Made by a program: the position numbers and the translations under genes. Below, piece by piece: positions 9,884 to 51,776 of a DNA stretch of 56,648 nt (positions within the stretch are counted from its first letter, which is position 1; each line of letters starts with the position of its first letter). This stretch comes from Candidatus Thorarchaeota archaeon (lineage in GTDB: Archaea > Asgardarchaeota > Thorarchaeia > Thorarchaeales > Thorarchaeaceae). The notes beneath the pieces were generated by a model. That model was not told the DNA's origin. It ran no database searches and worked only from the letters and a program-made list of their open reading frames with translations. Location of the stretch: contig JBHLRP010000021.1 in NCBI GenBank assembly GCA_048882485.1, forward strand, positions 1 through 56,648, read 5' to 3'.

Positions 9884-11077
9884 TCAGGTAAGTAGGTCGA
9901 GCAGATGTTGTTCCAACATCTCAGCTGGTACATCAGAGAGACCTATCAGGGTTGTCTGGCCTCTCTGGCCAGCTCCTGAACGTTTTGTGTCCAGAAGCCC
10001 ATGCGCATTTAGATCCTGTACCCATTCCCAGATCTGGGTGTGCGCCCTTGGTTCTTCACCATACTCCTCGCATATCGGACGATACATCTCTTCGAGCTCA
10101 CCCATTGTGATATAGGCGCCTCGATTCACCTTGAGTTGTCTTGCAGCTGCTAGGAGAAGAAGTATATTCTGTCGTGGGATAGTTGCAAACACCTCCTTCC
10201 TCAACTCGGGATGTGTGTCTGCCTTGGCCTTGCGAGCATAATCAGGAATCACCTTTCGGGAATCAGCACTGTCGGCTTGTTTTCCTGCACGCCACAGGAG
10301 CTCGATTGCATAACGGGCATCCCCCCGTTCTGAGGCAATGTCGCAGATAAGCTGCAGTGTTTCATCCATAACGGCATCCTTCTCGAATGTCATATCTACT
10401 CGCTCCTTTAGAATATCATATAGAGCGTTGGATGCATATTGGTCAAAACGAAGTATGTTTCTTTGAAGTGTGCTCAATGTGCTTTGATCCAAGATGCTCT
10501 CATCAAGGGGTATATTTCTCCCCACTCCGATTACAGACAGGCGCTGAGGGGCATTCAATCTGTCATCCATCAGTCTAGTCAGATCATAGAGAATGTCAGC
10601 TCCTCGTTGTCTAATGAAATAGTCGAGCTCATCAAGTATCAATAGAAGGTATCTATCTTCTTCATCAAGTACTTCCACAACCATCTGTAGAATTTCTTCA
10701 GGTGAATGGCCTCGTCGAGGAAATCTTGGTTTAAACTCCCTCAACATCCGCAAATACACAAGATAGGTACTCTTACTCACTCTGCAGTTTATGTGCAGCT
10801 TGTGCAGTTGTATGCCACGGCGGGTAGCTGCTTTAACCATTTGTTCCGCAAAACGCTTAGTCACAGCTGTCTTTCCGGTTCCCACTGGACCCTCGATAAT
10901 GAACTTCTGACTTGCGCGACCGGGAGAAGCGATTAGTGTCTTGAAACTCTGGGCAAGCTTCCTCAACTCAGGCTCTCTATGTGGGAGAGTTTCTGGAACA
11001 TAGTCGATGGACAGCAATTGCTCCGACTTGAATACGCTCTGTCGACTCAATTCGTCTTCCACATAGTCATACGTCAT
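9884..11077 (-). CDS. cdc6: Orc1/Cdc6 replication initiator
   Basis: YVPETLPHRE, GPVGTGKT, LDELD, GDARYA, C-terminal wHTH with GQRGQTT wing. Confidence 0.95.
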   Translation of the reverse strand: MTYDYVEDELSRQSVFKSEQLLSIDYVPETLPHREPELRKLAQSFKTLIASPGRASQKFIIEGPVGTGKTAVTKRFAEQMVKAATRRGIQLHKLHINCRVSKSTYLVYLRMLREFKPRFPRRGHSPEEILQMVVEVLDEEDRYLLLILDELDYFIRQRGADILYDLTRLMDDRLNAPQRLSVIGVGRNIPLDESILDQSTLSTLQRNILRFDQYASNALYDILKERVDMTFEKDAVMDETLQLICDIASERGDARYAIELLWRAGKQADSADSRKVIPDYARKAKADTHPELRKEVFATIPRQNILLLLAAARQLKVNRGAYITMGELEEMYRPICEEYGEEPRAHTQIWEWVQDLNAHGLLDTKRSGAGQRGQTTLIGLSDVPAEMLEQHLLDLLT

Positions 11078-37044: not shown

Positions 37045-39378
37045 TCATTTCATTCGAGCCGCGGCAACAGCCACCTGACCTGCAGACACTCCTCCATCCC
37101 CAGGTGGTATATGCTTGTGTATCAGAGGCTGCTTTCCTTTCGAACGAATTACATCAACTAATGTTTCAGTAATAATTCGATTCAAAGCCACACCACCAGA
37201 GAACCCGACATACTTGACGCCTTCGTCATTAGCAATTCTGCAGGCCATCTCAGCGAGGGCTTCCCCAACATGTCGATGCACAGCATATGCAATCTTGTGT
37301 GTGGAATGTCCCTTTCTCTTTAGTTCCAGAATCTGGTCAAGGGATTCTGCTGAATTTAACTCGATGACTTTTCCACTTGAAATGAAGTCTGACTCGATAT
37401 TGAGTTCGGAGCTAACTGAGTGTGCCTCGAGTTTCATTGGACACTCGCCATCGTAAGAGTTCTCAGAACAGATACCTAATGAAACTGCCACAGCATCAAG
37501 GAACCTACCAACACTGGTACTCTGTAGGACATTGATGTCTTGGTCCATAGCTTGTAGTAGGACTGGCAATGTTTGCTCGTCCAGATTCTCGTTTGATGCA
37601 ATAGGCTGTCCTAATATGATTGGTAGGAACCTCTCAATTGGAAGTCTGTTCCCAAGAATCCCCACTAGAGACCGTGCTGCATACCTTGCCGAGAGATCCC
37701 CTCCAGGGAACGGACTTGGCTTCAATCCTCCCCTTCTCACAAACTCTGTTGCATTTCCGACTAGTATGTCGCCGCCCCATCCTCCTCCATCAGGAGAGTA
37801 TCCATAGCCATCTGCTGTAATACAAACAATACTTGTATCAAGGTCCATACTATTGTCTGCCAGTATTCCTGCAAGATGCGCATGATGATGTTGTACACGA
37901 ATCAATGGAGCGTCAATCTTGGAAGACAATCCCTCAGCCAGTTCTGTGCTCAGAAACTCTGGATGCAAGTCACATGCAATAGCATCAACCTCATCAACCC
38001 CAAGCAGAAACATCAGATGGCCGATGCTAGTTCTGAGGAAGTCAATGTTCTCAACTCGGTCAGTGTCGCCGATATGCTGAGTCATGTATACTTTCTTGGA
38101 CTTGAGGACCGCACCAGTCGCTTTCTCTTCAGGTCCTACTGCAACGACTTTCAATGCAGGTCTGCAATTAATGGTCAAAGGTTCAGGCACATATCCTCTA
38201 GCACGTCGAATGAACACTGGACTGTCATTGCCTACAAACTTAATCACTGAATCATCTGATCTCTGATGAATCCGGCGATTGTGTAGCAGGAAGTAGTCTG
38301 CTATCCCACTCAGCTCAGTGGTAATCACTTGTGGATTGATGTACATCGGTACACCTGTAGGATTTGCACTCGTCATTACCAAAGCCTCCTCTTCGAGCTT
38401 TTCGAATAGAAGATGATGAAGAGGAGCATAGGGTAACATGACGCCTAAGGTGTCCAAACCTGGAGATATCTCATCAAGTGACTTTTGGGAAATTGTTGAA
38501 CCAGTACGTTTTCTGACTAAAACAATGGGTCTTCGCCAAGTTTTCATTAGTTTCATTTCATTCTCAGTGGGTTCGCTGAATCGGAAGACTGCATCTGCGT
38601 CCTTGGCCATAATCGCAAAGGGCCGTTGAAACCTGTTCTTTCTCTCTCTCAGAACTCTAATCGGTCTATAATCAGAGGTCTTTATCACAAGATGTGTTCC
38701 GCCTATGCCTTGCAGAGCTAGAACAGCGTTCTTCTCTAATAGATGCGCCGCTTGAAATATACTGTCAATATCCTGTACCAGCTCTCCATCTTCACCATAG
38801 AGTAGATATCTTGGTCCGCAACTATCACATGCTGTTGTCTGGGCATGATACCTACGATCCATCGGACTTGTATAACCTGTATTACAAACATTACATAGAG
38901 GAAAATCCACCATTGTAGTATTTGGACGGTCGTAGGGGAGGCGAGTGATAGTTGAGTATCTTGGCCCGCATGCGGCGCACGAGGTAAATGGATACTGATA
39001 CCATCGTGAATCCGAACTCTTCAGGTCCAGAATGCAATCATCACAGATAGCAATATCCGGAGGCATTTCTGGTGCTGACTTTTCACTTCTCTCTGTTGAT
39101 GAGTTTCTTATTGAGAATGAGTCAAAGGAGTCGATTGCCGAATCCCACTCTACGTTGACTGAGTCAATGCGAGAGATTGAAGGAGGATTTGATTGGAGTT
39201 GCTTAATCAGTTCCTCTATTCTCTCACGATCCCCCTCGACCACTATTTGTACACCTGCATCTCCGAGGTTTAGTACATAGCCTAACAGTGACAGGTTGTT
39301 TGCAACTCGATAAACAAAAGGCCTGAATCCAACACCCTGGACAATTCCAGTGACATGGATATCAGCTCGTTGTTTCAA
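37045..39378 (-). CDS. hypF: [NiFe]-hydrogenase carbamoyltransferase
   Basis: GIVQGVGFRPF, two Zn fingers, TSAN, QHHHAH, PGDGGVSAGQ. Confidence 0.96.
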   Translation of the reverse strand: MKQRADIHVTGIVQGVGFRPFVYRVANNLSLLGYVLNLGDAGVQIVVEGDRERIEELIKQLQSNPPSISRIDSVNVEWDSAIDSFDSFSIRNSSTERSEKSAPEMPPDIAICDDCILDLKSSDSRWYQYPFTSCAACGPRYSTITRLPYDRPNTTMVDFPLCNVCNTGYTSPMDRRYHAQTTACDSCGPRYLLYGEDGELVQDIDSIFQAAHLLEKNAVLALQGIGGTHLVIKTSDYRPIRVLRERKNRFQRPFAIMAKDADAVFRFSEPTENEMKLMKTWRRPIVLVRKRTGSTISQKSLDEISPGLDTLGVMLPYAPLHHLLFEKLEEEALVMTSANPTGVPMYINPQVITTELSGIADYFLLHNRRIHQRSDDSVIKFVGNDSPVFIRRARGYVPEPLTINCRPALKVVAVGPEEKATGAVLKSKKVYMTQHIGDTDRVENIDFLRTSIGHLMFLLGVDEVDAIACDLHPEFLSTELAEGLSSKIDAPLIRVQHHHAHLAGILADNSMDLDTSIVCITADGYGYSPDGGGWGGDILVGNATEFVRRGGLKPSPFPGGDLSARYAARSLVGILGNRLPIERFLPIILGQPIASNENLDEQTLPVLLQAMDQDINVLQSTSVGRFLDAVAVSLGICSENSYDGECPMKLEAHSVSSELNIESDFISSGKVIELNSAESLDQILELKRKGHSTHKIAYAVHRHVGEALAEMACRIANDEGVKYVGFSGGVALNRIITETLVDVIRSKGKQPLIHKHIPPGDGGVSAGQVAVAAARMK

Positions 39379-39506
39379 TCCAAACAGTCCTCTCTACGTG
39401 GACCCCTATAAGTCTGGAATATTAATCCAACTAAGTAGCACGTTTGGTGTGTCGGTGCAATATATGACCTATTAAGGAGCCAGTTATCACAGAATCTTGA
39501 ACTAAC

Positions 39507-39923
39507 GTGCGTGTCTCAGGTGATAATAATCGGCCCCTATTGTTCGAACCCGAAACCACCCCTTCTATCTTAGCCAGTATTCCGGATTGCTTCAGGAGCA
39601 TTCTTCTGGAAACCGTTGAGAAGCTAAGGAAGAAGGAGAAATCCACACTCATATCGAGCAATAGTCTCGCCAATAGATTCATCCTTGAGAGATGGGGCAT
39701 TCGGCCTTCTCAGAGGAAAAGGTATCGCAACCTATTCGCACAGGTACGGAAACAATGTCGCGCTATATTCCAGCATTATCTCGCACGAGGCAGAGTCGAG
39801 TGGACAACTAACAACACGAACTATGTCTTTGGCGTTTTCAAATTCGATGAGATACGTGGCAATCTAATCCTCGGGTTTGTGTTAACCCCTCCCGAGTCAG
39901 AATGGAAACTTCGATTCAGGTAG
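39507..39923 (+). CDS. Hypothetical basic protein (possible winged-helix-like)
   Basis: 138-aa K/R-rich ORF; no family recognised. Confidence 0.6.
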   Translation: MRVSGDNNRPLLFEPETTPSILASIPDCFRSILLETVEKLRKKEKSTLISSNSLANRFILERWGIRPSQRKRYRNLFAQVRKQCRAIFQHYLARGRVEWTTNNTNYVFGVFKFDEIRGNLILGFVLTPPESEWKLRFR

Positions 39924-40094
39924 ATCTTTACTATTAATTGTTGTATTACAGGCATATCACGAATCTTCACCGGGAAGGTTTATGTGTTCAATTGTATACA
40001 AAATTGTATCCGTACAGATGTACAAGACTTAGGTCTGGAAAAAGCATTATGAAGCCTCTTTTTGCAGTTTCCATCCTTATGAGGCCTGTCAAAT

Positions 40095-40643
40095 ATGAGT
40101 CAAAAAAGGTCCAAAATCAAATGGCGTGGTACTGTGAAACAACTTGCAGATGGAGCACAGAGGGTCTTACAAGAGCCCATCTTGAAAGCACTGCTCGATC
40201 AATCCACACTTACAAAGGTCCAACTAGAAACTCTTCTGATAGACCTCGTTGTAGAAGACGAACATGGGAGTCATATTCCATATGATGAGAAGGCATCTCT
40301 CAGATTGAAAAGGAAGGGAAGTGGAGTTTCGCGTGGTTCGTTCAACAGAACCCTAGGCCAGGCGCGAAGAAACGTGACGCGTTGTCTATACACAATGTTA
40401 CTTCTAGCGTATCTTGGTCTGTTCGAATTCACACTTTTCAGGCCATTTGAGGAGATAGCCTCGAGGATTGGTGATTATCGGAAGATTCGTGATATACTAG
40501 CAGGGAAGGCAGATCTGTCCGACGAAGAGATCGAGAGCTATAGCACAGCAGAACGTACAATTCTCTCGGCGTTGGAAGAACTCACTTCATCAACAGTGCT
40601 AAAGTCCGAGTTGTCCAAACGCAAAGCTGAACCAGGAGTATAG
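40095..40643 (+). CDS. Hypothetical protein with HTH-like segment
   Basis: STLTKVQLETLL..YDEKA..VSRGSFNRTLGQARRN HTH-like pattern. Confidence 0.7.
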   Translation: MSQKRSKIKWRGTVKQLADGAQRVLQEPILKALLDQSTLTKVQLETLLIDLVVEDEHGSHIPYDEKASLRLKRKGSGVSRGSFNRTLGQARRNVTRCLYTMLLLAYLGLFEFTLFRPFEEIASRIGDYRKIRDILAGKADLSDEEIESYSTAERTILSALEELTSSTVLKSELSKRKAEPGV

Positions 40644-41033
40644 AAAAGAAACGGCACGAGCATGTCGTATCTGTGGCAAGTCGCTCAGGTTTCCAAGCAC
40701 CGAACTCTTACCGGCATTGGATCTTCTTGGAGGTACTTTTACTTGAGGAGATAGAGATGCCAACGACGGGCGTTTGAGGGTGCCAAAGGATGGAAATCCC
40801 GTAGCATTAGTTTGCCATCATTGACACAACATGCTCATACTTTACAAGGTCACAAGTATACATAGTTCTAATCTTAGAACGCATACTTTTTCTTTGTCTT
40901 GCTTCACTAAATGTTGTTTTCATATGTGAAATATTCATTGTATTACAAAAGATACAAACAATACAAGATAGCTCAACAAAGTCTTATCACTCAAGATAAT
41001 GATTCTAGTCATGCTATAGGAGTAAGACTGAGT

Positions 41034-42263
41034 GTGTCCGAAGAAAGAGATGCCAAGTGGTTCCTGAGGGCTAGTCGTGAGCGTGCGGAAAAAGCTGAGA
41101 TGGAAAGTTCACTGAAGGACATCGTTGACGCAATAGGCGAGAGAAGGTCCCGGGATCTGCTTGATATCGTTGCAACTGTAGAACAAGACAAGGGATGGAA
41201 CACAGCCCTGGAATATCTCATTTATGTAGGCAATATGGAGTATTCTACTCCAGCTGGCTTTGGAAAGCAACAGAAGCATATTGAGCCCCTGAAGTACCGC
41301 GAAATGATCTTTGACCTGTTGTCATGCAATGGATTTGAGCCTGTACAGACTGATACTGCAAGCCTTCTTCGAACGCTGAAATCGAGTAAATCTCTAGCTG
41401 AAGCATCACAGTCGTTCACTTTCCATGTTCAGGAGATTGCTATGAACCAAATAGAATCCGGTGACACACTATACTTCAATGTCCTTCCAGATCCTAAGTT
41501 TGAGGAGTTCAACAAACAGCTTGAAGCAATCCGCGTTGAACAGATAGCTAATCTCAATCTAAAACGAACTGGCGAGCTTGTGGAAACTACACAATTATGG
41601 TATTCTGAATACGGTCGCCTTGCTCTGTCCGACCTTGGGATAAAGGGAAACAAAATATCAATTAATCAGTTTGATATGGTATTATCAGTAATACAAGTAT
41701 CACCAGAGGTCAAACAAAAGATAACAGTGTCTGAAACAGTAGAAGCTTCTGGGATGGACTCCATCGGACCATCAAATCAAATGTACAAAGAACTTCATGA
41801 ACACATCATGCATCAAGACATTGAAGGTCTTATCTCCAAGGGCAGTATTCACTCCTTGCCAACTCTTAATGCAATACTAGATAATGCAGTTACTCAATAC
41901 ATGAGTTCTAAATCAAGCGAGGCTTATCGACAGCTTCTACAATGTGTCAATGGCCATGTTGCCGTCCGTCATTTGAACTCAATCACACACCTTGAGAAGC
42001 TATTGAGGACTGATGACCAAAGAATTATCACGCCATCGATAACAGCTCTTGGAAATCTCTACCATGAATCGTCCGCTCATGCCATTGTCGACCTGATTTG
42101 CAGGAGTATGGATAAGCGAGTCATCGATGCCTCATTAACTGCTCTTGACAACATCTTGAAGAAGTCTCCTGAAACTATGGCTGTGATCAAAGATGCTCTG
42201 GAATCTGAATGCAAGAACCGTAGGCATCTTAGACGCTTCCAAAAGAGAAGCCCTTCAGAATGA
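41034..42263 (+). CDS. Hypothetical protein with C-terminal HEAT-like repeats (GTG 41034 preferred)
   Basis: ITALGNL..AIVDLI..ASLTAL helical repeats. Confidence 0.65.
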   Translation: MSEERDAKWFLRASRERAEKAEMESSLKDIVDAIGERRSRDLLDIVATVEQDKGWNTALEYLIYVGNMEYSTPAGFGKQQKHIEPLKYREMIFDLLSCNGFEPVQTDTASLLRTLKSSKSLAEASQSFTFHVQEIAMNQIESGDTLYFNVLPDPKFEEFNKQLEAIRVEQIANLNLKRTGELVETTQLWYSEYGRLALSDLGIKGNKISINQFDMVLSVIQVSPEVKQKITVSETVEASGMDSIGPSNQMYKELHEHIMHQDIEGLISKGSIHSLPTLNAILDNAVTQYMSSKSSEAYRQLLQCVNGHVAVRHLNSITHLEKLLRTDDQRIITPSITALGNLYHESSAHAIVDLICRSMDKRVIDASLTALDNILKKSPETMAVIKDALESECKNRRHLRRFQKRSPSE

Positions 42264-42334
42264 TATTACTTGTAATACAATGCTCATTCGTTTCGCTCGG
42301 TAGACATAAATCAAGTGATAATTGGTTCAGAGTC

Positions 42335-43732
42335 ATGACCAGTTTGGGCCCAAAGGGATTCGATGAGATTGACTCCTTTTTCAATCCTTCACGGGTCGCC
42401 CTTGTTGGTGCATCATCCGACTATCGGAAACTAGGCAATTCCATTCTCATGAACCTCCTCACGTCCGAGATCGATGTCTATCCAGTGACTCGCAGCAGAG
42501 AACAAGTCCTTGGAGTCAAGACATATTCAAGTCTTGCCAATATTCCTGAACCTGTCGACTTGGTCATAGTTGCTGTTGCAGCAAAGTATTGTCCGGACTT
42601 GATGAGTCAGGTCCGAGAGGCAGGTGCGAGATCTGCAGTGGTGATATCGGGCGGTTTTAGTGAAACTGGGCCACAAGGTTCGCAACTTGAGGACGAGCTT
42701 GTCAAAGCCGCCCAGGAGGCTGGAGTCAGAATAATTGGACCTAATTGTGTAGGTGTTTCCAACAGCAGATTGTTCAATGGCACATTCACTATGACGCCTG
42801 AAAGAGGGAATATCTCACTACTCTCCCAGAGTGGAGCACTTGGTGGTATGCTCATCTACAACACACGTGTCAAGCGTATAGGTCTCAGTAAGTTTGCTAG
42901 CATTGGTAACTCAGCTGACGTCAGCTTTGGAGAGATTCTGGATTACTTCACTGACGATTCAAAGACCGCTGTGATAATGGTCTATGTAGAGGGGGTTGAT
43001 GACGGCCGTGCTTTCTTTGAGTCCCTCAGCAGAGCCGCTAGACAGAAACCGGTCATAGTGCTTAAGGGTGGGAGAAGCGAGCCTGGTGGTCGGGCAACCC
43101 AGTCTCACACAGGATCCCTAGCGGGTTCAACAGCTGTATTTGATGGTATGATTCGACAAGCCGGCTGTGTAACAGCTCCTTCTCTTGATACCTTTCTTGA
43201 GATTGCCAAATTGTTTGACTATCAACCACTACCAAAAGGACGTAATATTGGTATTATCAGTAATACAGGAGGGGCAGGTGTTCTTGCCACAGATGCATCA
43301 GCTGGTTTCGAGCTAAACATCCCTTCACTAGAACGAGAAACGAGCCAGGAATTAAGGCAGGTTCTATCTCTCATGGCTTCAGTAGAAAATCCGGTAGATG
43401 TTGTAGCAAGTGCAGGGAGAAAGGAATATCGAATTACCACAGAACTGATGCTCAAAGATCCTAACATAGACATGCTAATGGTGATATGCGGAGTTCCGAC
43501 CTTTGCTGGAATGACTCAGACAGAACATGCTGCAGGTACTCTGGAAGGGATACGAATTGCAGATGTCAAGAAACCCGTCGTTGGAGTATGGCTTGCGGGT
43601 GACGTTGGAAAACCCGGAAAGGATCTACTTGAGATGAATCGTATTCCTTGCTATGATGACCCGGCTCTAGCTGCATTGTGTATTGCACGAGTCACGGAAT
43701 ACTCGGAGATGCACGCATCCAAAAAGGATTGA
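42335..43732 (+). CDS. acdA: ADP-forming acyl-CoA synthetase alpha subunit
   Basis: FFNPSRVALVGAS, IIGPNCVG, SQSGALG, SHTGSLAG, NPVD. Confidence 0.92.
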   Translation: MTSLGPKGFDEIDSFFNPSRVALVGASSDYRKLGNSILMNLLTSEIDVYPVTRSREQVLGVKTYSSLANIPEPVDLVIVAVAAKYCPDLMSQVREAGARSAVVISGGFSETGPQGSQLEDELVKAAQEAGVRIIGPNCVGVSNSRLFNGTFTMTPERGNISLLSQSGALGGMLIYNTRVKRIGLSKFASIGNSADVSFGEILDYFTDDSKTAVIMVYVEGVDDGRAFFESLSRAARQKPVIVLKGGRSEPGGRATQSHTGSLAGSTAVFDGMIRQAGCVTAPSLDTFLEIAKLFDYQPLPKGRNIGIISNTGGAGVLATDASAGFELNIPSLERETSQELRQVLSLMASVENPVDVVASAGRKEYRITTELMLKDPNIDMLMVICGVPTFAGMTQTEHAAGTLEGIRIADVKKPVVGVWLAGDVGKPGKDLLEMNRIPCYDDPALAALCIARVTEYSEMHASKKD

Positions 43733-43810
43733 GCAGATTTAGTTACGACTAGACATAGTTGTATTACACGTATTATAACGATAATGCAATTATTCTCATG
43801 CTGAGAGCAT

Positions 43811-44098
43811 TCAGCCCTCATGATGCTTGTCGGCTATGTCTGGGAACTCCTCAGTCAGTGCTTTCCAAAGTTTTCTCTCAACCCACATACTCAGGTTGAT
43901 TGCCCTTTCATTACGCACATCCTGAAGACAAGATCGAAGCTCGGTCGTGAACGAGAATGACACGATTGGACTCTTCCTTTCCTTATTGGGTACAGCAATC
44001 ATTGCCTTCGGTTTCTCTACTGCAACTCTCGTTCCCGACTCAGCAACCGATTCTCTTTCCTCTTCACCAGCATCCCTATACTTTTTCAGAACACTCAA
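43811..44098 (-). CDS. Small protein with flexible N-terminus and C-terminal ribbon-helix-helix (ParG/SegB-like architecture)
   Basis: IVSFSF strand, TTELRSCLQDVRNER helix, INLSMWVERKLWKAL helix; SD GAGGTG; starts 2 nt after the ATPase stop. Confidence 0.7.
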   Translation of the reverse strand: MSVLKKYRDAGEEERESVAESGTRVAVEKPKAMIAVPNKERKSPIVSFSFTTELRSCLQDVRNERAINLSMWVERKLWKALTEEFPDIADKHHEG

Positions 44099-44100
44099 AC

Positions 44101-45075
44101 CTAACGCACCTCTCTCAGTATTGTCGCATAGGCATCCGATACAAGTTCTGCAATTCCTCTGCTAACTTCCGGATTGCCATTCTGCCTGAAGTTCTCTGCA
44201 GCCACCTGTTGACATCCTCTTGATAACATACGAATGTCACGTGGATTACCCTTGGCTGCTCTATTGATGACTATCACAGCATCATCAACGAATGGGTAGA
44301 TATCGTAGCTGTTCGCATCAAAGGTGTCAATCTGCCCCTTTGCATATGCGATTCTTCTGCCAATGAACTCCTTGGCCTTCTCATCGTCTAAAGCAGGAAC
44401 ATCAAGTGGCTCAGTCCTATCCGCAATTTGCGGCAAGAAGCTTAGCATTGCGTTCCAGTAAACCGCCGTCCCTGACATTATCAAAGTGATAATTGGCTCA
44501 TCTAATACCTCTGGATTGCCCTCTTTCATCTCCTGAGTGGGCAGGTCTGCAAGGTATCTGAGCTTGTGGAATGCTGCTTCTTGGTTATCAGCAACATCTT
44601 CCACAAATAGGGCTGTACGGCTTTTCTCTTCACTATATCTTCTCACACACTCTTGGGCAATTGATTCTACGATTTGACTTGATTCCCAAGATCTACGGTA
44701 TTTCACTCTCAACGAGTCTGCTATTGCTGCTGACATCTGTTTTTCATAAAGGCCAGTCATCCCAACATATCCGGTGACGAATTTGTTTCCTCGACGGTCT
44801 GCTAGGGTAGGCAGGTCTCTGAGAGCCAGCAACATGAGAGTACTCTTTCCTGAACCCACCGGCCCTCTGAGAAAGATGTGTCTCTCATTCGTGATTATCA
44901 AATCAACAATGCTATCGAGAAAATCAGGGTGTTCCACATATAGTCTGGAATCAGGCATCTTGTATCCCCTAAATGGGGAAAACCTACACCCAATTCTTTC
45001 CTCCCAAGCTCGCAAGACTTCCTTGCGCGTGTTGAAGTGGCGAATCAATGCACTTTCGTGAATTGCTATTGTCAT
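44101..45075 (-). CDS. ExeA/GspA-like AAA+ ATPase
   Basis: FSPF, Walker A GPVGSGKST, atypical Walker B LFVED, IMSGT, IADR, PF..GNPRDI sensor 2; no C-terminal wHTH. Confidence 0.8.
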   Translation of the reverse strand: MTIAIHESALIRHFNTRKEVLRAWEERIGCRFSPFRGYKMPDSRLYVEHPDFLDSIVDLIITNERHIFLRGPVGSGKSTLMLLALRDLPTLADRRGNKFVTGYVGMTGLYEKQMSAAIADSLRVKYRRSWESSQIVESIAQECVRRYSEEKSRTALFVEDVADNQEAAFHKLRYLADLPTQEMKEGNPEVLDEPIITLIMSGTAVYWNAMLSFLPQIADRTEPLDVPALDDEKAKEFIGRRIAYAKGQIDTFDANSYDIYPFVDDAVIVINRAAKGNPRDIRMLSRGCQQVAAENFRQNGNPEVSRGIAELVSDAYATILREVR

Positions 45076-45254
45076 GATGTGAACCTCATGGTATCACATG
45101 TACTTCTTGTAATACAATCACCGGGATGCTGACTAATAAGTGGTATGGTGGACTTTCAGTCTGGCGCCTCCAAGACGCAACCTTTTTGAACAAGATGAAT
45201 AGGCAAGAAGGCAAGTCCCGGCATGACCGGTCAATCACACAGGAGAATCCTCGA

Positions 45255-45533
45255 ATGGATGTCGATCGAATACGGCACGTCCTAAACTCTCTGATGATAC
45301 TCAGTTTCCTAATCTTCGGAGGTTTAGCAGCAATAATCCTAATCGCAGATGTGGAGCTAACAAGCCCAGCAGTGGCACTCCCCTTCGCATTCCTGTTTAT
45401 CTCCCTCACGACACTTATCACAACTGGACAGATAAACGACAGGCCCCGATTGGTTAAGAAATATCTCCGAAACTGGTTGATCATCTGTGCTTTTGCCATT
45501 CTTGTCAGTGCCCTAGTCATTACATTTGCATGA
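45255..45533 (+). CDS. Small three-TM membrane protein
   Basis: Three hydrophobic helices; AGGAG upstream of ATG 45255. Confidence 0.65.
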   Translation: MDVDRIRHVLNSLMILSFLIFGGLAAIILIADVELTSPAVALPFAFLFISLTTLITTGQINDRPRLVKKYLRNWLIICAFAILVSALVITFA

Positions 45534-45609
45534 TATGCATCACAAGAGTTTTAGGACATCAATATAGCACGACTGACTGTACCAATCTCATCCGCCGAAG
45601 TGAAGATCA

Positions 45610-46242
45610 ATGAGCAAAATTCTGCCTGGAACAAAGACGACTCGCATGGAGCTTCTGCGACTGAAAAATAGGATGAGACTCGCAGAACGAGGTCATAACC
45701 TTCTCAAAGAGAAACGCGACTCACTAATCATGGAATTCTTCAACTCAATTGAAGAAATCAAGAAGACTCGGGCGGAGGTTGAAGCGGCTCTCGCCTCAGC
45801 ATTCTCCGCACTAACAAAGACAAAGATGGTCATGGGTCCAGCTGAGGTCGTTGAGTTTGCCAATGCAAGCAAAGTCCAAGCTGACCTGAGAATCTCTACG
45901 AGATCTATGATGGGTGTAGTAGTCCCAGTACTGTCCGTAGAACAACACATACCCGAGCTCCCCTACTCTCTTCCAGATTCAAGCGTCCAGCTTGATGTCA
46001 TGTCGACCAGGTTTAACGAGGCCATGAAAGCTGTAGTTCGTCTTGCCGAGATTGATTCAACTGTCAAAAGACTGGCAATCGAAATCGAGCGAACCAAGAG
46101 ACGTGTTTCTGCTCTTGAAACCATTGTGATTCCTAGACTGGATGCAACAGCACGGTATGTAAAACAAGCTCTTGAAGAGAGAGAACGTGAAGACTTCTTC
46201 AGGCTCAAGTTTCTCAAAGAACAGATGGAGTCTGAGAGCTAG
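45610..46242 (+). CDS. atpD: A/V-type ATP synthase subunit D
   Basis: TRMELLRLK..GHNLLKEKRD, EIERTKRRVSALE, EEREREDFFRLK. Confidence 0.95.
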   Translation: MSKILPGTKTTRMELLRLKNRMRLAERGHNLLKEKRDSLIMEFFNSIEEIKKTRAEVEAALASAFSALTKTKMVMGPAEVVEFANASKVQADLRISTRSMMGVVVPVLSVEQHIPELPYSLPDSSVQLDVMSTRFNEAMKAVVRLAEIDSTVKRLAIEIERTKRRVSALETIVIPRLDATARYVKQALEEREREDFFRLKFLKEQMESES

Positions 46243-46265
46243 GTTATGTATTAGCTGTATTACAT

Positions 46266-46667
46266 CTACGTATGCCGTAATTTCAAAATTGCTGCCGCAA
46301 GATCTCCCTGTGTTTCCCGTAGAGCCTCTTTTGCTACTTCGATATCAACTCCAGTCTGTGCTGCAACAAGTGCGGCATCTTCCATTGGAATCTCAATCTC
46401 CTTCACTGGTTCTTGAGCAGATTCTTCGCTACCTTCTGCAGTTGTAGTCAGACCGCGTTCCATCTTTGTGCCTGATACTTGGAACGACTCACTACCAGCT
46501 TGTTTCACCAGCAACACCTGAGGATCATTGACTACCCATTCTTTGTCTGCAAAACGGAATATCACTTCCTTGACACCAGGCACGTCCTGCTGTTCGATAC
46601 CCATCTGTTTCATCATTCGGGCAATGGCTCTAGGTGACATCCCGCGTTGACCACGTCTGCGTGACAT
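46266..46667 (-). CDS. nac: Nascent polypeptide-associated complex protein
   Basis: MMKQMGI, FQVSG, UBA-like GDLAAAILKL. Confidence 0.93.
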   Translation of the reverse strand: MSRRRGQRGMSPRAIARMMKQMGIEQQDVPGVKEVIFRFADKEWVVNDPQVLLVKQAGSESFQVSGTKMERGLTTTAEGSEESAQEPVKEIEIPMEDAALVAAQTGVDIEVAKEALRETQGDLAAAILKLRHT

Positions 46668-46724
46668 TGTTCAATCCTCAAGTCTAGATATTCAATCTGA
46701 CACTCGAATGAGGAGATAAAATGC

Positions 46725-47567
46725 TTACGCTTGAACAGTATTTTCCTGCCCCACTAGGATGTCAAAAACGTAGTGGATGATGTTCGGGGCGTACATCTTT
46801 ACTTGACGAATTGAAATTTGAGATGCAAATCTCTGACTTACACAGATCTCTTTTACCAATTCAATAGTTCTAGACAAATCATTTTCGGGTAGTGCAATAT
46901 GCATGTGTACTATCCCTCCCTCTGGCACCAGAGCTTCCAATGCATGAATCAAGTACTCCTGGGTGTCATGAAGATATCCCATTATCACACGATTCATGCA
47001 GTTGTTCGGATGTACAACACGACAATCACCTAGAATCGCACTTACTTTGTCAGTGAGACCGTTTAGACTGATATTCTCAATAAGCAGTTCATATGCTTCG
47101 GGATTAATCTCAATCGAAGTCACCTCAGCCCTTCCAGTCTTCGCTGCATGCAGTGAGAATTGTCCAACACAAGCAAACATGTCTAGGACTCTCTCTCCCG
47201 ATTCTATAACTCGGCCCATTCTGATTCTCTCAGCAAGGTTTCCTCCAGAGAATGTAAATCGTAGTGGATCGATTCTGAAACTCACCCCTCCCTCGACATG
47301 TGTTGTGAGAGTGTTGGAATCTCCTGCAATCAAGGTATAGTTCGGTTTGCGAACCTGTCCCTTTGTAGGACCAGTCTTTACAGCAACCGATTTAATCCTA
47401 ATATCATACTCTAGAGTCGCTTTTCCAATCGGGCTAGCAAAAGAAACAGAATCATGGTCTAAGCTCAGAATAGCCACATGTCCTATTAGATGGAACCCTG
47501 ATGGGAGTCTAGTATCCTCAGGAATAACTCCATGAAGTCGAGTTCTGAGAAATTCCATATATTGCAT
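46725..47567 (-). CDS. Trm5/TYW2 (Taw2)-family SAM-dependent tRNA modification enzyme
   Basis: IGHVA, FSGGNLAER, DMFACVGQF, EINP, RVIMG. Confidence 0.87.
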   Translation of the reverse strand: MQYMEFLRTRLHGVIPEDTRLPSGFHLIGHVAILSLDHDSVSFASPIGKATLEYDIRIKSVAVKTGPTKGQVRKPNYTLIAGDSNTLTTHVEGGVSFRIDPLRFTFSGGNLAERIRMGRVIESGERVLDMFACVGQFSLHAAKTGRAEVTSIEINPEAYELLIENISLNGLTDKVSAILGDCRVVHPNNCMNRVIMGYLHDTQEYLIHALEALVPEGGIVHMHIALPENDLSRTIELVKEICVSQRFASQISIRQVKMYAPNIIHYVFDILVGQENTVQA

Positions 47568-47686
47568 TGACTTTCTCTATCATAGCCAACCTCATAAAAC
47601 ATTGGTGCTAGGATGACTTATCCTACGATATACATTTCCTACGTTGTATTTCTCGTATTACAATATCTTGGATGTTAGACCACATA

Positions 47687-51112: not shown

Positions 51113-51776
51113 TATTTGGCTCGTGGAAAAAGGCTATTTCTCTTCGCGACAGGCTGCAAAACGCGCTATACGGGCGGGTCATGTCAAAGTAAATGGAGCT
51201 CTGTCAAAACCGTCAAAAACCATCAAGAAAACAGACTCGGTCGTTGTATCAACTGTAATACAAGACAATCCAATTGGATATGCTAAACTCAAAGAGATTG
51301 ATGATTATTTAGAAGGAAACCTACTGTGGGATATCAATCTGGCCCTCGACATTGGCAGCTCCGCTGGGGGTTTTTTAACCCTTTTAGGCGAGAGGAATAT
51401 TCGTGCTGTAGGTGTCGAAGTTTCTGATGAATTTGCAGAAACCCTTGAAGAACTTGTGGAAACCTATCCAACCATTTCAATTCTAATTGATGATGCTTTC
51501 ACAATGGACCCATCCATTGTCTGCAATGAAGGCACATTGGATTTGCTACTTGTGGATGTCACTACTGATCCAGACGGCACAATCAACTTGATTCAGAGAT
51601 TCTCTTCTCTCATGAAGAAAGGCAGTCGACTTGTGGCAGCCTTCAAAGCAAGAAGCACTCCTGAAACAATAGAGGAGTTGCGTAGACAAGTCTCTAGACT
51701 GGGTTTTGTCGAAATTCTGAATCTCACCCTTGACAAGACCCGTCAGGAGATACATCTGATAGCCACTCGACATTGA
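51099..51776 (+). CDS. S4-domain TlyA/FtsJ-like RNA methyltransferase
   Basis: RLDIWLVEKG..SR..A S4 domain, LDIGSSAGGF. Confidence 0.85.
   Translation: MPRLDIWLVEKGYFSSRQAAKRAIRAGHVKVNGALSKPSKTIKKTDSVVVSTVIQDNPIGYAKLKEIDDYLEGNLLWDINLALDIGSSAGGFLTLLGERNIRAVGVEVSDEFAETLEELVETYPTISILIDDAFTMDPSIVCNEGTLDLLLVDVTTDPDGTINLIQRFSSLMKKGSRLVAAFKARSTPETIEELRRQVSRLGFVEILNLTLDKTRQEIHLIATRH

Follow-up and report, generated by a model that had tools for sequence, protein, structure and literature searches.

Chromosome handling and segregation in Asgard archaea are a gap in current knowledge. Partition systems are classed by their NTPase as Walker, actin-like or tubulin-like. The archaeal systems SegAB and HpaAB use ParA-type motors, and none has been described from Asgard archaea in the literature that we searched. 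The locus studied here lies in a 56,648-nucleotide stretch of Thorarchaeota DNA (the window); its layout fits a DNA-partition kit, but its motor comes from a family that has no known partition role. The first-pass annotation had proposed an analogous partition or origin-organising system driven by an ExeA-like AAA+ ATPase. The layout, the arrays and their co-occurrence found support in our analysis, whereas the ExeA identity did not. No description of this combination of ATPase, small protein and arrays was found in the literature searched.

The operon lies on the minus strand and consists of a gene for a 324-aa AAA+ ATPase (44101–45075) and a gene for a small tailed protein of 95 aa (43811–44098); both open reading frames are as first annotated, including the LFVED end of the ATPase Walker B strand. 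The second one starts with TTG, 2 nt past the stop codon of the ATPase gene, and GAGGTG precedes this start by about 9 nt. At the level of gene layout, the downstream gene for a candidate centromere-binding protein and the repeats near the operon correspond to a type I partition locus. The ATPase gene is present in a single copy in 54 of the 59 genomes of the family, where its identity of 77–98% equals the level of PAN and IorA from the same block, and it was seen paired with a downstream small gene in seven Asgard families. Its neighbours are housekeeping genes (IorAB, HypF, ACS, AtpD, NAC, Taw2 and PAN), with synteny kept across genera and a flat GC content. The genes annotated at 31–49 kb are housekeeping genes or belong to no known family, likewise in relatives, and none of the neighbouring genes tested encodes a transposase domain. 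A candidate third component, p182 (182 aa; 40095–40643, plus strand), belongs to no known family and has no Pfam match. Its phyletic pattern is close to that of the ATPase, and its gene is always located 0.3–4.5 kb from the ATPase gene.

The AF2 model of the ATPase (pLDDT 91) has an AAA+ fold with a lid domain. Its top matches in Foldseek and VIA-align were Cdc6/Orc1, TnsC and MuB, with VIA-align Z scores of 19.4 for Drosophila Cdc6, 18.5–18.9 for archaeal Cdc6/Orc, 18.0 for TnsC and 17.2 for the MuB filament; the alignments with Cdc6/Orc span 250–272 residues. In the model, helices 111–121 and 132–150 are located between beta2 and beta3, like the initiator-specific motif, and the protein has the AAA+ module of the initiator clade. 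A C-terminal winged helix is absent from the model, which stops with the lid helices at residue 324, leaving the protein without a DNA-recognition domain; in this genome, Cdc6_C (PF09079) was detected only in two other genes (C21:9911-10192 and one on C50). Residues G74, G76, K77 and R220 are invariant, and conservation extends to Walker A (GPVGSGKST), sensor-1 T203 and the GNPR motif of sensor 2, with Walker B varying between ED, DD, DE and DN.

Pfam matches of the ATPase were weak (AAA_22 with 24.1 against a cut-off of 27, and AAA_16), and Orc models scored far below their cut-offs. A HMMER scan against 1.84 billion representatives returned only 20 clusters at E ≤ 0.001, and among the 8 of them that were looked up, each organism-named one is archaeal. 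The ExeA identity is not supported, as the ExeA model TIGR03015 scored 21.8 bits against a cut-off of 324.5 and the structure is nearest to Cdc6/Orc1, TnsC and MuB. No association with secretion, which had been named as evidence that would speak against a partition role, was seen in the neighbourhood or in relatives. JGI labels homologues of the ATPase 'type II secretory pathway predicted ATPase ExeA'. The protein does not have the deviant Walker A fold of ParA/MinD (Walker A GPVGSGKST, AAA+ model). Because the genome also encodes ParA/MinD-type ATPases (9 AAA_31 matches), a conventional ParA-type motor may yet be at work. Given these matches, absence of ParA from the genome cannot be claimed. 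To our knowledge, no AAA+ protein of the Orc1/Cdc6-TnsC-MuB clade moves DNA cargo.

In the 95-aa protein, the alignment and the AF2 model revealed an invariant N-terminal peptide (MSxLxKYR), followed by an acidic linker that varies and a C-terminus with a conserved beta-alpha-alpha pattern. In the monomer model (pLDDT 80–87), residues 44–49 are extended and lead into helices at 50–65 and 69–84. Its weak VIA matches include omega (Z 3.3; 1.9 Å over 40), SegB (7duv, Z 3.5; 2.4 Å over 46 residues) and the PutA RHH domain (Z 3.0); these three and pCXC100 ParB matched the model at an rmsd of 1.9–4.2 Å with low Z. A wide VIA search gave a best Z of 4.4, which is in the background range, and Foldseek found nothing at E ≤ 0.001, with Arc among the top 10 at E > 1. 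Atlas neighbours of the protein are CopG, Arc, HicB and RHH_10 clusters at 0.90–0.92. Neither Pfam nor NCBIfam has a family for it, a per-member Pfam scan gave chance-level matches and no RHH family, and a profile search of PDB sequences, SegB included, gave no match at E ≤ 10 beyond chance level. From these weak signals, which agree with one another, we tentatively consider an RHH fold of the C-terminus likely.

Two arrays of the GTAWTAC core in 9-bp register bracket the operon, at the places given in the first-pass annotation. A triple array (45089–45117) is located in the divergent promoter region, its three units (45089–45115; 1, 2 and 0 mismatches) lying 14–40 bp upstream of the ATPase start, and a double array (43759–43776; 0 and 1 mismatch) lies just 3' of the small gene, 35–50 bp past its stop. 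The window contains 19 copies of GTAWTAC where 2.7 would be expected, and none of 100 shuffles gave as many. The whole assembly has 212 cores (0.053 per kb), and its sole cluster of at least 7 per 15 kb is at this locus. GTAWTAC dimers with a 9-bp period (at most 1 mismatch) are concentrated here too: 11 of the 13 in the 3.96-Mb assembly are found at 34414–47646, and periods of 7, 8 and 10–13 showed no comparable excess. The core and dimer scans delimit a genome-unique field of about 14 arrays at 34414–47661, about 1 kb apart and mostly inside housekeeping genes. An extent of 17.5 kb had been proposed for this field; 13.2 kb of it is well supported, whereas the remainder depends on a lone core at 33834 and a weaker outlying array at 51246–51261 with 2 mismatches in its dimer. 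The spacing of the arrays is regular (CV 0.28 versus 0.94 for random placement, P ~1e-5; for a strict set of 12 sites, CV 0.51, P = 0.011). Furthermore, the same codon is used in five genomes at 10 of 15 invariant residues inside arrays, compared with 136 of 2416 outside (Fisher P = 1e-9). The intragenic arrays are under DNA-level selection, with synonymous sites frozen across genera.

The field begins next to a candidate oriC. As had been noted, a real-looking origin is present here: an inverted ORB pair (34188–34356) with ORBs at ~34188–34213 and ~34334–34356 flanks an AT-rich tract of ~120 bp, and the first array starts 57 bp away. An Orc1/Cdc6 paralogue gene (9884–11077, minus strand; Cdc6_C match 69.6 bits) is located 23 kb from the ORB pair. 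We compared the window's own family (f1) with six others (f2, f3, f7, f19, f21 and f27). In the f1 genomes G004 and G024, the corresponding end of the field also carries ORBs, and ORB pairs or lone ORBs were found 1–11 kb from the operon in six families. The best-scoring Orc1/Cdc6 gene is 3–10 kb from the operon in f2, f3, f7 and f19; in f27 this distance applies to the second-ranked paralogue, not the best-scoring one, and in f1 the best-scoring gene is elsewhere, away from the operon. In f27 the operon forms the centre of the field, and the 29 kb examined there revealed no ORB.

This proximity raises the alternative that the module is an auxiliary factor for initiation or origin control. The small protein would then bring the ORC/Cdc6-like ATPase to the arrays flanking oriC and regulate MCM loading, firing or re-initiation in the manner of bacterial datA/DARS, SeqA or Hda, with no movement of DNA. 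Such a role suits the ATPase fold no less than segregation does: Cdc6 and Orc1 are its top structural matches, and the Walker B variation (ED, DD, DE, DN) is of the kind seen in AAA+ switches and not in AAA+ motors. The field also adjoins the ORB pair, and the linkage of the operon to the best-scoring Cdc6 gene in four families, or to the second-ranked one in f27, points the same way. However, about 14 even, intragenic arrays that extend for 13 kb to one side of the origin are unlike known initiator sites, the f27 field has the operon at its centre with no ORB seen in the 29 kb examined, and a tailed RHH protein combined with an NTPase and repeats bracketing the operon is the signature of a partition cassette. 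We regard origin control as unlikely, although it deserves serious consideration.

In relatives, where the first-pass annotation had suggested looking for them, the two genes, the arrays and their origin neighbourhood occur together. An array at about −40 of the ATPase gene was found in 5 of the 6 f1 genomes scanned and in f27, with none above threshold in G098. In every f1 relative examined, cores or arrays are found no more than ~150 bp beyond the small gene, and f27 also has them just past it. Dimers in f1 are concentrated around the ATPase gene: in G004, 8 of 9 genome-wide are within 12 kb of it, and in G024 (24/24), G019 (8/8) and G021 (12/12) all are on its contig, a few of them up to ~26 kb from the gene. 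In the f27 genomes, 11/12, 10/10 and 6/6 dimers are within 1.6–3.6 kb of it. Because the synteny of a 25-kb block is conserved within f1, the array-operon link there cannot be separated from the neighbouring genes; f27, f19 and f7 supply the independent support.

The families with the f1-type small protein (f1 and f27) have GTAWTAC at 9 bp. In f19 and f7 a different small protein is encoded downstream (hhalign probability 0.1 against the f1 type, homology unsupported), and the repeat is GATATC in a 13-bp register, with its dimers clustered on the operon (16/22 in G063, 14/17 in G087, 13/15 in G093, 5/7 in G030 and 4/5 in G099). The repeat type thus changes where the small-protein type changes, and p182 stays homologous. 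In f19 and f27, the space that separates the small-protein gene from the ATPase gene is also filled with arrays. A GTAWTAC pair lies upstream of the operon in f7, although the main repeat there is GATATC. The Odin-like f3 and f21 have no repeat field with GTAWTAC or GATATC (no GTAWTAC dimer cluster in G026 and G077), and f2 has few GTAWTAC cores only. Scans for k-mer enrichment, palindromes and tandem periods revealed no convincing field in G025 (f2), nor one with GTAWTAC in G026 and G030. Two candidate field motifs were rejected in these scans: CCAWTGG in G025 belongs to ORBs, and CTATATA is unphased.

This switching also bears on the identity of the array binder, which might be another protein (p182 or Orc1/Cdc6), the operon just residing in the field and being regulated by it. 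The near-identical phyletic pattern of p182 and its constant position within 4.5 kb, the f7 GTAWTAC pair and the conserved synteny within f1 are compatible with such a binder. Against it, the repeat changes with the small protein while p182 remains homologous, and the operon lies between arrays, which in f19 and f27 fill its intergenic gap as well. In addition, RHH proteins (omega, ParG, CopG) typically bind short direct repeats in tandem. We consider another binder improbable and the small protein probably the one that binds the arrays. It is more improbable still that the small protein is an aCcr1/CdrS-type RHH repressor of local promoters and the co-transcribed ATPase is mechanistically separate. 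The aCcr1-box, printed as a 9-bp palindrome (bioRxiv 10.1101/2022.07.07.499082), does share the GTAWTAC core, and one array covers the operon's own promoter, but aCcr1 sites are distributed over ~300 promoters, whereas the arrays here are mostly intragenic, even and confined to one locus, and the pairing with the ATPase is kept in seven Asgard families. Finally, an origin of the locus as the partition cassette of some integrated plasmid or mobile element, or a role as ExeA-type accessory of secretion, as the JGI label and the likeness of the layout to plasmid par loci might suggest, is hardly credible and was rejected on the basis of the housekeeping neighbours with cross-genus synteny, the flat GC, the single-copy, near-universal ATPase gene and the TIGR03015 score far under the cut-off.

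We conclude that the genes and the arrays very probably form one functional unit. Whether the operon and the repeat field constitute a centromere-like, origin-handling nucleoprotein module is in our judgement evenly balanced, and a role in segregation or positioning, as opposed to control of initiation, is possible without being quite probable. Only tentatively do we propose the full version, an Asgard-confined machine for segregation or origin positioning, in which an ORC/Cdc6-clade AAA+ protein replaces ParA, ParM or TubZ and is loaded by a tailed RHH adaptor onto an evenly spaced, multi-kilobase centromere-like field by oriC. In our reading of the module, the 95-aa protein would dimerise via its RHH-type C-terminal domain and bind cooperatively to tandem GTAWTAC in 9-bp register. 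Its sites would be the arrays, which occur every ~1 kb over 13 kb from the ORB-DUE-ORB origin and are kept by DNA-level selection; the two that bracket the operon may provide autoregulation. The MSxLxKYR peptide on the flexible acidic linker would recruit or stimulate the ATPase. Since the latter has a Cdc6/Orc1-TnsC-MuB fold but does not itself contain a DNA-recognition domain, ATP-dependent oligomerisation on the array-marked DNA would be expected. The resulting domain could act as a centromere-like handle that positions or segregates newly replicated origin regions, resembling bacterial ParB-parS and archaeal SegB-segS.

With its defined proteins, sites and origin-side position, the module is a concrete candidate for Asgard chromosome handling. 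If the proposal is true, an ORC/Cdc6-clade AAA+ motor adds a new class of partition system and connects a eukaryote-like initiator fold to centromere-like DNA. If the module controls the origin instead, at least seven Asgard families still share a highly conserved origin factor that had not been recognised before. Every step of the mechanism is accessible to in vitro work on synthetic arrays and recombinant proteins.

Among the known systems, aCcr1 and CdrS are likewise small RHH proteins, and the aCcr1-box has the same GTAWTAC core, but these repressors of ~60 aa act alone, lack an ATPase partner and have their sites at hundreds of promoters instead of in a clustered field. The ATPase is structurally similar to TnsC/MuB/TniB (TnsC Z 18.0, MuB filament Z 17.2). 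ATPases of this group polymerise on DNA, to which they are recruited by a separate DNA-binding selector; in contrast to them, the locus has no transposase or transposon ends, and its ATPase is encoded by a stable single-copy chromosomal gene. Orc1/Cdc6 with its ORBs shares the best structural match (Z 18.5–19.4), the beta2-beta3 helices and the adjacency to ORBs and cdc6, whereas the ATPase has no winged helix, DNA recognition would fall to the small protein, and the repeats are not ORBs. The bacterial chromosomal ParABS system also has clusters of sites near the origin beside the genes for binder and NTPase, but its two proteins are unrelated to those studied here, and the module contains neither a ParB CTPase fold nor a ParA.

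SegA-SegB-segS of Sulfolobales and Euryarchaeota is similar in arrangement. The RHH protein SegB has a disordered N-terminus and is encoded right after its ATPase, its sites cluster near segAB and mostly lie inside genes, and segAB has been described from Thermoproteota and Euryarchaeota, not from Asgard archaea, in the literature searched (PMC12284271, PMC12139799). Gene order and clustered intragenic sites are thus common to both, and SegB is among the low-rmsd matches of the small-protein model. In contrast, SegA resembles ParA, the small protein showed no sequence homology to SegB in our search, and SegB sites are also scattered genome-wide, whereas nearly all dimers here are in one locus. 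The type Ib cassettes (ParF-ParG-parH of TP228 and delta-omega of pSM19035) have the same succession of an NTPase and a small protein whose N-tail is flexible and whose C-terminus is of RHH type, as predicted in our case, and they also carry short tandem repeats at the operon promoter. The conserved basic N-terminal peptide recalls the tail of ParG, which is described as stimulating ParF in the work cited by PMC13722703 (refs 96-97). What distinguishes the locus from these cassettes is its Cdc6/TnsC-type AAA+ protein in place of a ParA/MinD deviant-Walker NTPase, and its chromosomal, origin-linked position with about 14 mostly intragenic arrays over 13 kb.

The coupled two-gene operon described in the first-pass annotation was recovered on the minus strand of the window (contig C21, one of 157 in an assembly of 3.96 Mb that the names of homologues assign to Thorarchaeota): it consists of an open reading frame for a 324-aa AAA+ ATPase (45075..44101) and, 2 nt downstream, one for a 95-aa protein (44098..43811), which uses a TTG start codon preceded at about 9 nt by GAGGTG. 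In the ATPase, the Walker A motif reads GPVGSGKST and the Walker B strand terminates in FVED. Its homologues retain Walker A and sensor 1, together with the arginine at position 220 and a GNPR sensor-2 motif, and differ in the two acidic Walker B residues (ED, DD, DE or DN). Family profile scans gave exclusively sub-threshold matches (AAA_22, AAA_16, ORC-CDC6-like and TIGR03015). The predicted model (pLDDT 91) consists of an AAA+ base and lid with two helices between β2 and β3 and lacks any further domain. In VIA-align comparisons, its Z score was 19.4 with Drosophila Cdc6, 18.5-18.9 with archaeal Cdc6/Orc, 18.0 with TnsC, 17.2 with the MuB filament and about 15 with clamp loaders and NLRs. 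Of the ExeA/Orc-clade fold proposed earlier, the Orc part is supported by the Cdc6/Orc scores, and membership of ExeA could not be demonstrated, the TIGR03015 match being sub-threshold. Divergent from the ATPase gene, and sharing an array-bearing promoter region with it, is a gene for a small membrane-like protein (45126-45533, plus strand, likely start near 45195), which is kept throughout the window's own family, f1, with 52-70% identity.

No match to the 95-aa protein was obtained in family scans. The alignment divides it into an invariant N-terminal peptide (S2, L4, K6, Y7 and R8), a variable acidic linker and a conserved C-terminus, which in the monomer model forms an extended segment followed by two helices. 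Its weak structural matches include omega, SegB, PutA RHH, Arc and pCXC100 ParB, and its nearest Atlas neighbours are CopG, Arc and HicB clusters. Taken together, the model, the matches and the neighbours suggest that this protein is likely a ribbon-helix-helix (RHH) protein.

The GTAWTAC core occurs 19 times in the window (2.7 expected). Nearly all cores at 34.4-47.7 kb have one or two degenerate copies at a distance of exactly 9 bp; cores outside this stretch have no companions at that spacing. In the whole assembly, 11 of the 13 dimers with this period (≤1 mismatch) lie at 34414-47646, and no dimer excess was found for other periods. Both arrays previously reported to flank the operon are real, with three units in 9-bp register on the ATPase side (45089-45115) and two on the side of the small gene (43759-43776). 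The field comprises about 14 arrays placed roughly 1 kb apart, more evenly than expected by chance (CV 0.28 versus 0.94, P ~1e-5; P = 0.011 for a strict set of 12 sites). Most of them are intragenic; the host genes have unrelated housekeeping functions (IorA/B, HypF, an Arm/HEAT protein, ADP-forming acetyl-CoA synthetase). Sixteen genes of the window were codon-aligned with their counterparts in as many as four same-family genomes of other species and genera. Counted only where the amino acid is invariant, 10 of 15 codons inside arrays were identical in all genomes, versus 136 of 2416 outside (Fisher P = 1e-9). This conservation indicates that the arrays are functional DNA elements rather than by-products of coding.

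Within f1, 54 of 59 genomes carry exactly one copy of the ATPase gene, its product being 77-98% identical, on a par with PAN or IorA of the same block, and the small gene lies downstream in every relative looked at. Genome-wide searches placed 24/24 (G024), 8/8 (G019) and 12/12 (G021) dimers on the contig of the ATPase gene, clustered around it with a few outliers up to ~26 kb away; in G004, eight of nine were within 12 kb. Taking the ATPase start as zero, the field reaches from roughly -2.5 kb to +11 kb. Five of six genomes showed an array near -40, and all six showed cores or arrays just 3' of the small gene. Since gene order is conserved over the entire block, f1 alone does not allow the operon to be distinguished from the genes around it. 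A dimer-like sequence, CTATTACGAGTATTAC, is common to G004 (C1:54380), G019 (C17:177863) and G021 (C2:174206); its distance to the operon is ~10 kb in the latter two and 1.7 Mb in G004, whose assembly is a single contig. Possible causes are conservation of a coding motif, genome rearrangement and an assembly problem.

Full-length single-copy ATPase homologues were found in seven Asgard families (source names Thor, Gerd/Heimdall, Frey and Odin), and the profile yielded 0/26, 1/54 (weak), 0/16 and 0/10 in several large families; HMMER run exhaustively against 1.84 billion representatives returned only 20 clusters. In all six other families examined, the ATPase gene is followed by a small ORF whose C-terminus is beta-alpha-alpha-like. 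Family f27 (ATPase 45% identical) has the f1-type small protein and GTAWTAC at 9 bp, with 11/12, 10/10 and 6/6 dimers near the operon, packed into 1.6-3.6 kb around it. Family f19 has another small protein (hhalign probability 0.1) and a GATATC repeat at 13 bp, with 16/22 dimers near the operon in a closed 3.58-Mb genome (G063) and 14/17 and 13/15 in two others; f7 shares this protein type and repeat (5/7 and 4/5). A GTAATAC-N4-GTATTAC pair also occurs ~115 bp upstream of the f7 operon, although the main repeat there is GATATC. The expected co-occurrence of gene pair and arrays was borne out in f1 and f27, and in f19 and f7 with GATATC instead; f2 has merely a few GTAWTAC cores, and no field of either repeat was found in the Odin-like families. 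By sequence comparison, repeat type tracks small-protein type and repeats track the operon; the view that genes and sites form one unit draws its main support from this.

Origin recognition boxes (ORBs) also accompany the operon, as inverted pairs at 0.9-1.0 kb (G099, f7), 2.1-2.3 kb (G063) and 6.3-6.5 kb (G026, Odin-like), as two boxes at 7.2-8.5 kb with 1.3 kb between them (G025, f2) and as a single box at 10.7 kb (G030, f7). In f2, f3, f7 and f19, the operon has the top-scoring Cdc6 gene at a distance of 3-10 kb; f27 has its second-ranked Cdc6 paralogue at 10 kb. In the window, an inverted classical ORB pair with outward G-strings surrounds a 120-bp AT-rich tract (34188-34356), 57 bp from the start of the field, and an Orc1/Cdc6 paralogue is encoded at 9884-11077. 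Another well-formed ORB with a G-string, at about 30126-30148, lies 4 kb from the pair and has equivalents at the matching place in G004 and G024. GAACA-NN-TGTTC palindromes on either side of the pair (34165-34178, 34399-34410, 33856-33868), similar to those adjoining ORBs in G099 (L031 18689-18706 and 19400-19417), may be bound by a further origin factor. The field also contains the gene for a 182-aa protein, p182 (40095-40643, plus strand), for which no Pfam family was found; in the Atlas it neighbours unnamed clusters from Thor and Bathyarchaeota, and Sigma70_r4 comes up no higher than 0.78. Its phyletic pattern nearly coincides with that of the ATPase (f1 53/59, f3 4/4, f7 5/5, f19 5/6, f21 3/3, additionally f12 and f13), and the two genes are 0.3-4.5 kb apart wherever both are present. 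The protein may be a third component.

The module is best read as a putative centromere-like, origin-handling nucleoprotein system; the main rival is a role in origin control. No description of the ATPase family or of the gene-repeat layout was found in the literature searched. The genome also has nine ParA/MinD-type AAA_31 matches (contigs C41, C28, C47 and others; L023-L028). Like partition cassettes, the operon combines an NTPase with a tailed candidate RHH adaptor, and tandem repeats extend over the promoter as well; unlike theirs, its motor is a member of the AAA+ clade that encircles or coats DNA (Cdc6, TnsC, MuB). The GTAWTAC core is common to the repeat and to the aCcr1-box, the 9-bp palindrome of the Sulfolobales RHH cell-cycle repressor aCcr1 (bioRxiv 10.1101/2022.07.07.499082). 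The locus is origin-proximal, as is bacterial parS, and its arrays are mostly intragenic and clustered near their own locus, as are SegAB sites, which are mostly intragenic and clustered near segAB (PMC12284271).
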